Shown here piece after piece: positions 58,781 through 59,702 of a stretch of DNA of 64,000 nt. The notes beneath the pieces are model-generated. The model was not told the origin of the DNA, did not search any database, and was given only the letters and a program-made list of their open reading frames with translations. Made by a program: the position numbers and the translations under genes. Numbering within the stretch: the stretch's first letter is position 1; every line of letters starts with the position of its first letter. The stretch comes from Vulcanimicrobiota bacterium. Lineage in GTDB: Bacteria; Vulcanimicrobiota; Xenobia; Xenobiales; JADMJV01. Location of the stretch: NCBI GenBank assembly GCA_050250895.1, contig JBFWNU010000001.1:2980891-3044890 (forward strand), in the 5' to 3' direction.

Positions 58781-59173
58781 ATGAAAATTCTCAAGCTAAC
58801 CGTTCTTTTTATGCTCGCTCTTTCGACCCTGGCCCTGGCCAACGACCCGCTGCCCTTCGCCGTCAAACTCGGCGACCAGGCGGCCCAGCGCAAAGAGGGC
58901 GTCGACACCCACGCTGTCTTCGCCGGTCCGGTGGCCTCTAACGCCGTCATGTCGGTCTCGGGCGTCGAGGGTCAGATCATCGTCAACATCTTTCCCGCCC
59001 ACGAGGACGGCACCGTCGACTCGGGCGCCCAGGCCCTCATCCTGCTGTTCGACGCCAAAGCGTCCAAGGCCATCAGCCAGAACATGCAGGGCAAGGCCCC
59101 GGCTGCCGGTTGGTACCTGGCGAACGTCGTCGGAGGGGGCAATACCTCGCGCATCGTTTTCCAGGTGAAATAA
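58781..59173 (+). CDS. secreted hypothetical protein
   Basis: Signal peptide ALA-N; strong codon bias. Confidence 0.75.
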   Translation: MKILKLTVLFMLALSTLALANDPLPFAVKLGDQAAQRKEGVDTHAVFAGPVASNAVMSVSGVEGQIIVNIFPAHEDGTVDSGAQALILLFDAKASKAISQNMQGKAPAAGWYLANVVGGGNTSRIVFQVK

Positions 59174-59205
59174 AAAGAAAAAGCCCCGGCTTTCGCCGGG
59201 GCGTT
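59172..59205. terminator. intrinsic terminator hairpin
   Basis: A-tract then GCCCCGGC-TTTC-GCCGGGGC. Confidence 0.75.
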
Positions 59206-59310
59206 AGGTCCAACCATTGCTCATCTCACTGAGGAAACTTTACCGCCCCGGCGTCACAAGAGCGTTAAATCCCTGGTAGGCTCCGGGCCGGCCTTGCCGA
59301 AGTAACCAGC

Positions 59311-59595
59311 ATGAACAGAAGAACTCTCCTTTCCTACCTGCTAATGCTACCTCTGTCTGCTCTGGCGGCTGCCAAGACCGCCCAGGTGAAGCTCAAGATC
59401 TCCGGCGTTAGTTGACCCACCGGGTGAGGCAAGCGCGTCGAAGACGCGCTGATGCGCCTGGATGGCGTAGTAAAGGCAAAACTGATTCGACGGGACCTGG
59501 CCCAGGTGTTCTATGACGCCTCGGTCACCAACCCCGAGAAGATCGTGGCGGACTTCAACAAGACGGGTGGACGCTACCAGGCGGCGCTGACCTGA
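59311..59595 (+). CDS. secreted HMA (MerP/CopZ-like) domain protein with two in-frame TGA codons (putative selenoprotein, UPTGU)
   Basis: Manual translation: MNRRTLLSYLLMLPLSALAAAKTAQVKLKISGVS*PTG*GKRVEDALMRLDGVVKAKLIRRDLAQVFYDASVTNPEKIVADFNKTGGRYQAALT. TGA at 59413 and 59425; hairpins follow. Confidence 0.82.
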
Positions 59596-59603
59596 ACTCA
59601 ACT

Positions 59604-59640
59604 TGTAACCTCTGTAAGTGATCTGTAAGCGGCCTGTCAT
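59604..59640 (+). promoter_or_regulatory. OmpR/PhoB-type direct-repeat operator
   Basis: CTGTAAG (59612), CTGTAAG (59623) and CTGTCAT (59634) at 11-bp spacing. Confidence 0.55.
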
Positions 59641-59702
59641 CGGCTCGTTGGCGAGCCGGGATAAGCTTGACTCACAAGCAAGCACGAAAAGAGGAAAACA
59701 AG

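Follow-up and report, generated by a model that had tools for sequence, protein, structure and literature searches.

The stretch of DNA analysed here (the window, 64,000 nt in length) probably carries a real but unannotated gene for a small exported HMA protein, similar to MerP and CopZ, in which both metal-ligand cysteines are replaced by selenocysteine (Sec), and for which we infer a soft-metal role and a tandem pair of SECIS elements. A double-Sec, MerP/CopZ-like exported protein had been proposed in an earlier note on this DNA, and that proposal is now supported by the Sec machinery of the genome, by the correspondence of TGA and Cys columns among homologues, by coding conservation, and by the predicted fold. 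The result adds a missing gene and, with it, an unannotated family of 19 TGA-containing genes, which are found in 15 of 44 genomes of a poorly studied class and which gene callers truncate.

Gene and reading frame

The gene (Table 1) begins at an ATG (nt 59311) and ends at a TGA (nt 59593–59595). TGA1 and TGA2 are the only internal stops of the frame, and around these two sites the product reads ...KISGVS-U-PTG-U-GKRVEDAL.... The coordinates and frame are as described previously for an unlisted ORF with in-frame TGAs. Translation table 11 splits the frame into pieces of 34 and 47 aa, and the protein collection of this genome (G000) holds just the 47-aa piece (P0003); the full gene is therefore absent from the annotation. 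Searches of protein databases gave truncated gene calls only.

Table 1. Features of the selenoprotein locus (nt positions of the window)
Feature	Position (nt)	Strand	Description
Dispersed repeat, one copy	59172..59270	+	Repeat of ~100 nt; A-run, perfect 8-bp GC hairpin, ~68 nt
Selenoprotein gene	59311..59595	+	94 codons plus terminal TGA; exported HMA/MerP-like product (predicted), motif U35-P-T-G-U39
Probable signal peptide	59311..59367	+	Residues 1–19; basic N-terminus, hydrophobic core, A-L-A ahead of the likely cleavage site; assigned by eye
TGA1 (Sec35)	59413..59415	+	Codon 35; column of first metal-ligand Cys
Alternative long stem-loop	59415..59468	+	MFE structure; lower stem formed by TGA2 region and hairpin 2 bases, hairpin 1 at tip
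TGA2 (Sec39)	59425..59427	+	Codon 39; column of second metal-ligand Cys
Hairpin 1, candidate SECIS for TGA1	59432..59450	+	8 bp, loop GAA, -12.4 kcal/mol; TGA1-to-loop 24 nt
Hairpin 2, candidate SECIS for TGA2	59453..59469	+	6 bp, loop UGGAU, -8.5 kcal/mol; TGA2-to-loop 31 nt

The base composition is that of a single coding frame. GC3 is 0.73 in the gene frame versus 0.61 and 0.44 in the other two, and downstream of TGA2 the corresponding values are 0.80 versus 0.67 and 0.37. Coding conservation past both TGAs, the loss of which had been named as grounds for abandoning the gene, was found to hold, both in GC3 and in the codon changes of a related metagenome contig (see below). Elsewhere in the window TGA terminates 13 of the 35 long, high-GC3 frames, so that it is an ordinary stop and the genetic code is unchanged, as had been stated.

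The earlier prediction of an exported protein with a signal peptide agrees with the family alignment, in which a hydrophobic N-terminus can be seen by eye in every member. A twin-arginine leader was considered because of the M-N/K-R-R start of the G000 protein and its counterpart in G001 (a second genome of the same genus), but is not supported, as the RR pair is missing in other members and Tat models gave no match to the protein at E <= 1. An antisense ORF of 112 aa (nt 59347–59685, minus strand; GC3 0.64, no Pfam match) overlaps the gene, and G001 has a similar antisense ORF. The ORF in the window is judged to be a by-product of high G+C.

Homologues and origin of the second selenocysteine

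A six-frame search over 61 related genomes recovered homologues with an in-frame TGA from many of them, and in those translated the TGA always falls in the same column. For the 44 genomes of the class there were 28 matches at E <= 1e-14, of which 17 have one TGA, two have two TGAs, and nine have none. These nine comprise four short Cys forms, one match in a 550-aa frame, and four domains of pump-length frames. In all, 19 family genes, from 15 of the 44 genomes, have TGA at the first Cys column. The 24 genes translated consist of two UxxxU, 11 UxxxC, six UxxC followed by Pro, and five Cys forms, with U and C sharing columns: the first ligand column has TGA in 19 genes and Cys in five, while the second has TGA in G000 and G001 only and Cys in the other 22. 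A search for homologues with TGA or Cys at these positions had been named as a check on the gene, and they occur at exactly both columns.

The two UxxxU proteins are 51% identical over their full length. In a maximum-likelihood tree their genes group together (support 98/87), and the sister of the pair, supported at 98/94, is of the UxxxC type and carries the same U-P-S-G-C loop. This position, inside the single-Sec genes, indicates that the second Sec represents one change within an older single-Sec family. Among 401 genomes of the phylum (a sample that includes four unpublished ones, G247, G370, G245 and G329, as negatives only), TGA forms of the family were found in this class only, and the double form in G000 and G001 only. 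The best explanation is that the double-Sec state is a recent step in an older family of exported HMA proteins with a single Sec (UxxxC, UxxC).

A Cys paralogue is also present in G000 (C3:246137-246394; L022 1459-1791). It is 110 aa long, has a leader, carries the loop C-E-T-G-C (CxxxC), and is a natural all-Cys comparator within the same genome. Its start overlaps the end of a gene for a 494-aa exported protein without Pfam matches. Together, the CxxxC, UxxxC, UxxC and UxxxU forms make up a natural series on one small fold that is easy to express, from which the effect of one or two selenols on a metal site could be learned.

A locus search with a three-sequence alignment returned six loci. 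Two of these encode proteins identical to those of the G001 and G015 genes, a third, from a Planctomycetota MAG, is a Cys form (C-P-T-G-C-G), and the remaining three were discarded as spurious, out-of-frame matches. The same type of search across genome contigs with a single protein as query found none. A metagenome scan gave one ordinary CxxC CopZ adjoining a pump. In another family of the phylum, an HMA match (G207:C37:15840-16001) lies in a 766-aa frame with one in-frame TGA, which may represent a Sec-containing P-type ATPase.

RNA structure downstream of the UGA codons

[quoted passage not shown] Hairpin 1 has this geometry with respect to TGA1 and hairpin 2 with respect to TGA2, and folding reproduced the coordinates and TGA-to-loop distances (~24 and ~31 nt) reported for them earlier. 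The cross-distances fall outside the range of 16–37 nt, as the loop of hairpin 1 lies 12 nt past TGA2 and that of hairpin 2 lies 43 nt past TGA1.

The region is more structured than its composition or its coding content would predict. In G000, the 63 nt from TGA1 fold with -31.1 kcal/mol (z = -4.82), and none of 200 dinucleotide shuffles was as stable. The z value for G001 is -3.68, that of the nearest UxxxC gene is -1.82, and those of six other genes range from -1.28 to +1.14. For G000 and G001 alike, 10 of 1000 synonymous recodings of the 63 nt after TGA1 matched the stability of the native sequence. This pair is the most extreme of the 24 genes, the same test giving 71–964 per 1000 for single-Sec genes and 44–980 per 1000 for Cys forms. 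The longest identical run between G000 and G001, 22 nt, lies at hairpin 2. The double-Sec genes carry extra RNA structure, and this is consistent with a second SECIS.

In this GC-rich family, hairpins alone do not tell Sec forms and Cys forms apart. The strict bSECIS criteria, including energy, are passed by 9 of the 19 TGA genes and also by 3 of the 5 Cys forms, which makes the test permissive and not decisive. The energy of the best hairpin, compared with 100 synonymous recodings, gave p = 0.02 for G000 and p = 0.13–0.95 for the other 18 TGA genes. Hairpin energy was rejected as a discriminator between Sec and Cys forms after the Cys-form and recoding controls. Between lineages the hairpins are out of register. 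A scan of nt 59250–59650 against Rfam, which covers bacterial SECIS poorly, found no SECIS family and returned a chance sRNA match (E = 3.9).

The tandem SECIS arrangement put forward in the earlier note is plausible. Only one of the two TGAs is in range of any given hairpin, and excess structure is seen in both double-Sec genes. On the other hand, two relatives whose second position is Cys (the UxxxC genes of G015 and G043) have hairpin 2 as well, and similar hairpins occur in Cys forms. In those two relatives the closing pair of hairpin 2 has changed from U-A to C-G, a compensatory change. The stem is partly dictated by the conserved residues R-L-D-G-V. Both UGAs may encode Sec with one shared SECIS, the role falling to hairpin 1 or to the long stem-loop, in which case hairpin 2 would be a by-product of R-L-D-G-V; this is a possible arrangement, if short of a probable one. 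It would account for hairpin 2 in the UxxxC relatives, and closely spaced UGAs are not unique, as UxxU and UxxxxU double selenoproteins are among those catalogued in PMC13188914. It also gains from the comparison of G000 with G001, in which codon identity is 6 of 7 inside hairpin 2 versus 14 of 26 outside, an excess that is not significant (Fisher P = 0.14). A single element is harder to reconcile with the two cross-distances, with the restriction of the excess over recodings to the two double-Sec genes, and with the closure of hairpin 2, in both of them, by GTA, a rare codon that makes up 4.2% of those for Val.

With one element for each UGA, decoding could proceed in the following way. UGA35 would be read by SelB with Sec-tRNA(Sec), assisted by hairpin 1. 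Twelve nucleotides on, hairpin 1 would be inside the ribosome, and UGA39 would be read with the help of hairpin 2, whose bases would be freed when the lower stem of the long stem-loop is opened by the advancing ribosome. The use of hairpin 2 bases in the lower stem of the MFE structure suggests that hairpin 2 forms only once the ribosome opens that stem. Two hairpins behind UGAs that are separated by only 12 nt would make a compact system for studying how bacterial SelB handles neighbouring Sec codons.

Predicted fold and relationship to known proteins

With U read as C, residues 28–86 of the product, which span both TGAs, match the Pfam HMA family (PF00403) with 28.7 bits (cut-off 24.8). An AlphaFold2 model based on the family alignment (mean pLDDT 86) has the order beta-alpha-beta-beta-alpha-beta, with strands at residues 23–31, 53–60, 63–69 and 90–93 and helices at 39–48 and 75–84; residues 1–22 are without secondary structure and have a pLDDT of ~60. 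At E <= 0.001 the model matched 26 PDB structures, all of them metallochaperones or metal-binding domains of the HMA type, the best being a metal-binding domain of ATP7B, HMA7, and MerP (1osd; TM 0.81, rmsd 1.8 A). The HMA-like character claimed previously is borne out by the PF00403 score and the predicted fold, and the product is confidently predicted to have a ferredoxin-like HMA fold of the MerP/CopZ kind.

When the family profile is aligned with solved HMA domains, U35 and U39 fall on the two ligand cysteines of GMxCxxC. The TGAs had been placed at these positions by the earlier note, and the alignment agrees, with the addition of one inserted residue between the ligands (UxxxU or CxxxC here versus the canonical CxxC). 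The second ligand column is invariant across the alignment with U read as C. The model places U35 in the loop that follows strand 1, and its helix 1 starts with U39. The canonical GMxCxxC does not occur as such, the motif being G-V-S-U-x-x-x-U with Sec at both ligands, and this is a variant of the motif and not a loss of it.

No NCBIfam model reaches its cut-off for this family, which would therefore escape current selenoprotein annotation. One of the nearest is NF041115 ('UxxU_metal_bind, metal-binding (seleno)protein'), which also describes small HMA-type proteins that can have Sec in place of both ligand cysteines. All 18 aligned family members match this model, with a best E-value of 4e-19, but at scores far under its cut-off of 95 bits (37 for this protein, 42.2–68.5 for the 10 other members scanned). 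It differs in having the spacing UxxU where this protein has UxxxU, and in the leader present here. The G000 genome has no NF041115 member over the cut-off.

MerP (TIGR02052; PDB 1osd, 1afi) is likewise an exported single HMA domain, of ~70 residues once cleaved. It is the best single-domain PDB match by sequence (64.5 bits) as well as a top match by fold, and the UxxC-P subgroup of the family shows a MerP-like C-x-x-C-P pattern. The TIGR02052 cut-off of 92.55 bits is missed by this protein (32.9) and by the best family member (60.9). Unlike MerP, the protein has one extra residue between its ligands and Sec in place of Cys, and its gene is not adjoined by merT, merA or merR. The CopZ/Atx1 chaperones and the N-terminal domains of Cu/Zn P-type ATPases share the fold and the position of the ligand pair; unlike this protein they are cytosolic, have no leader, show CxxC spacing, and are usually encoded next to a pump. 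Against two CopZ models the protein scores 38.5 and 24.5 bits (cut-offs 95 and 91).

Selenoproteins of related types have been catalogued. A 2026 review of prokaryotic selenoproteins (PMC13188914) includes, in the parts drawn on here, an HMA-type 'Metal-binding protein' (NF041115) with UxxU and two Sec, a Sec-containing cation-transporting ATPase (UxxC), a putative mercuric transport protein, and other double selenoproteins such as TsoB (UxxxxU) and Prx-like UxxU proteins. TsoB and the Prx-like proteins, as presented there, also have two UGAs a few codons apart in one bacterial gene, in unrelated folds; the passages drawn on give no account of whether such UGAs divide or share SECIS elements. 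A table in the study of ocean metagenomes (PMC2398784) has an entry for a 'Mercuric transport protein MerP' selenoprotein. As HMA-type double selenoproteins and MerP-like selenoproteins are thus already in the literature, the present protein does not represent a new principle. Relative to the catalogued UxxU proteins it is a variation, with UxxxU spacing and a leader, and it stands at the tip of a family that lacks annotation. In PMC13188914 UxxxU, UxxxC and PF00403 are absent as terms, and the main text of PMC1976440 (on the Olavius symbiont, cited in the review for NF041115) does not treat UxxU or mercuric reductase. The literature searches returned no account of an exported UxxxU/UxxxC HMA family, or of selenoproteins of this lineage, a point on which Haft & Tolstoy 2025 may bear.

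Gene neighbourhood and possible function

No mer or cop genes are present among the window neighbours of the gene. There were again none among 40 neighbouring ORFs of 20 related loci. Of 42 neighbouring ORFs scanned, the sole exceptions were at the MerP locus of G303, a genome of the same phylum with a classic MerP in a merT-merP-merA row. No conserved neighbour gene was found across the related loci, and nothing metal-related is shared by the 20. Of the window neighbours, two proteins have no Pfam match, nor does an exported protein of 142 aa, homologues of which occur elsewhere in G001 and G015. The others are a Gly/Ala-rich ORF of 90 aa and a response regulator in which HD and BTAD domains are found. 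In G001 the start of the double-Sec gene overlaps the stop of a molybdopterin oxidoreductase ORF (L023:3-1511; PF00384, 111 bits), which has no counterpart in the window.

The fold, the ligand positions and the leader point to a periplasmic soft-metal site. Once the protein has been exported and its leader cleaved off, the U-x-x-x-U loop, where helix 1 begins, would hold a soft metal between two selenolates, with Hg(II), Cu(I), Ag(I) or similar ions as candidates, and the role may be one of periplasmic buffering or hand-on. The earlier note saw in it a possible binder of Hg, Cu or Ag with very high affinity; this is a conjecture, and mer and cop genes are missing nearby. With such partners absent and the spacing unusual, a redox role is also conceivable. 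In the oxidising periplasm a diselenide could persist in its oxidised state and fail to bind metal. The same gene with the same two Sec could encode a redox protein in which U-x-x-x-U cycles between diselenide and selenols, serving as a periplasmic oxidoreductase or as a scavenger of peroxide or polysulfide. We regard this as unlikely, while giving it some weight, as the gene stands outside any mer or cop operon, its spacing is of the CxxxC type and not the canonical metal-binding CxxC, and the bacterial selenoproteins catalogued in PMC13188914 and PMC2398784, as far as these sources are drawn on here, are mostly thiol-type oxidoreductases with UxxC or CxxU motifs. Its sequence and predicted fold are nevertheless those of an HMA domain and not thioredoxin-like, with HMA domains or metallochaperones as the only structural matches, and the nearest family models are a metal-binding (seleno)protein, MerP and CopZ. 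On balance, metal binding is the likelier role, by a fair margin.

In its fullest form the proposal is that each of the two UGAs, at a spacing of four codons, has a SECIS to itself, the two elements forming in turn, and that the product is a periplasmic HMA site of the two-selenolate (or diselenide) type. The scheme as a whole is put forward tentatively. If true, the protein would be a natural metal trap of extreme softness, derived in a single genus from an ancestor with one Sec.

Selenocysteine decoding

The genome assembly (9.5 Mb, 17 contigs, 99.6% complete) contains complete Sec machinery, the genome-wide presence of selA, selB, selC and selD having been named earlier as a check. The selB (383.4 bits), selA (517.2 bits) and selD (357.8 bits) genes lie side by side and score above their curated cut-offs. 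A tRNA-Sec was found with 73.3 bits (cut-off 47), and ARAGORN identified it as tRNA-SeC with anticodon tca. The selD gene itself (G000:C1:701704-702633) has one in-frame TGA, as does a gene for the alpha subunit of formate dehydrogenase (G000:C5:213401-215401; 756 bits), and the organism therefore has several selenoproteins. A second Fdh-like frame (G000 C1:3601300-3602046) also contains one TGA.

Decoding of the two UGAs by another route, as Cys or Trp through near-cognate reading or by a suppressor tRNA, appears very improbable. Nothing observed here speaks for it, though the Sec pathway can mis-insert Cys under selenium scarcity. Against such a reading, TGA is a normal stop in the window frames counted above and also ends this gene; the Sec machinery is complete; and within the class TGA forms are found in 15 of 28 genomes with selB versus none of 16 without it, an association given as a count and not as a test because related genomes are not independent.

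Metagenome relatives and dispersed repeat

A contig from the sludge metagenome run X1 covers nt 59204–59700 with ~90% identity and spans the gene. Among the differences listed, 22 codons of the gene are changed, 17 synonymously and five non-synonymously, and these are spread both before and after the TGAs. Third positions account for 18 of the 26 differences listed (binomial P = 2e-4). Neither TGA is among them; they are given in order of position up to nt 59611, so that ten further differences probably lie downstream of the gene, and both TGAs are probably unchanged in this contig. A stretch of 53 nt free of differences extends over both hairpins (P ~0.10). In another assembly, a gene call that is 89% identical (P0004) also starts at a Met just past TGA2, as expected if a stop-like codon has been kept there too. 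A search of sequencing runs found only small shares, in runs from sludge and wastewater, with a maximum of 0.11 of the words sampled, and no habitat conclusion is drawn from this. The contig from the RNA run X8 does not span the gene.

The least credible reading, that of a decayed gene with two nonsense mutations or of a gene limited to the 47-codon piece from the ATG at nt 59452, draws on the fact that only pieces are open under table 11, on the 47-aa public gene calls, and on contigs from runs X3 and X8 that seem to be without most of the frame, but it is very unlikely, as both TGAs are kept in the 51%-identical gene of another species (G001) and apparently in the X1 contig with its predominance of synonymous changes, the HMA match and fold span both TGAs while the 47-aa piece would be without strand 1 and the metal loop, and the sole internal stops sit on the two ligand columns.

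The contigs from X3 (a DNA run) and X8 (an RNA-library run) are short. In them nt 59268 is joined to nt 59425 through 31 unrelated bases, and nt 59486 is joined to nt 59598. This looks like a relative in which the repeat, the segment running from TGA2 through both hairpins, and the downstream spacer have been kept but the gene has otherwise been lost; alternatively, it could be an assembly chimera through the repeat.

The repeat in question (Table 1) fills most of the spacer upstream of the gene. It gave no Rfam match over threshold and no covariation, and its hairpin was scored as an intrinsic terminator on the minus strand. At least 10 copies with 95–100% identity are present in G000, together with ~10 weaker ones. 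The copy in the window and two others that were checked are each situated just past the stop of one gene and ~40 nt before the start of the next co-directional gene. Metagenome depth over the repeat is ~20x that of its flanks.
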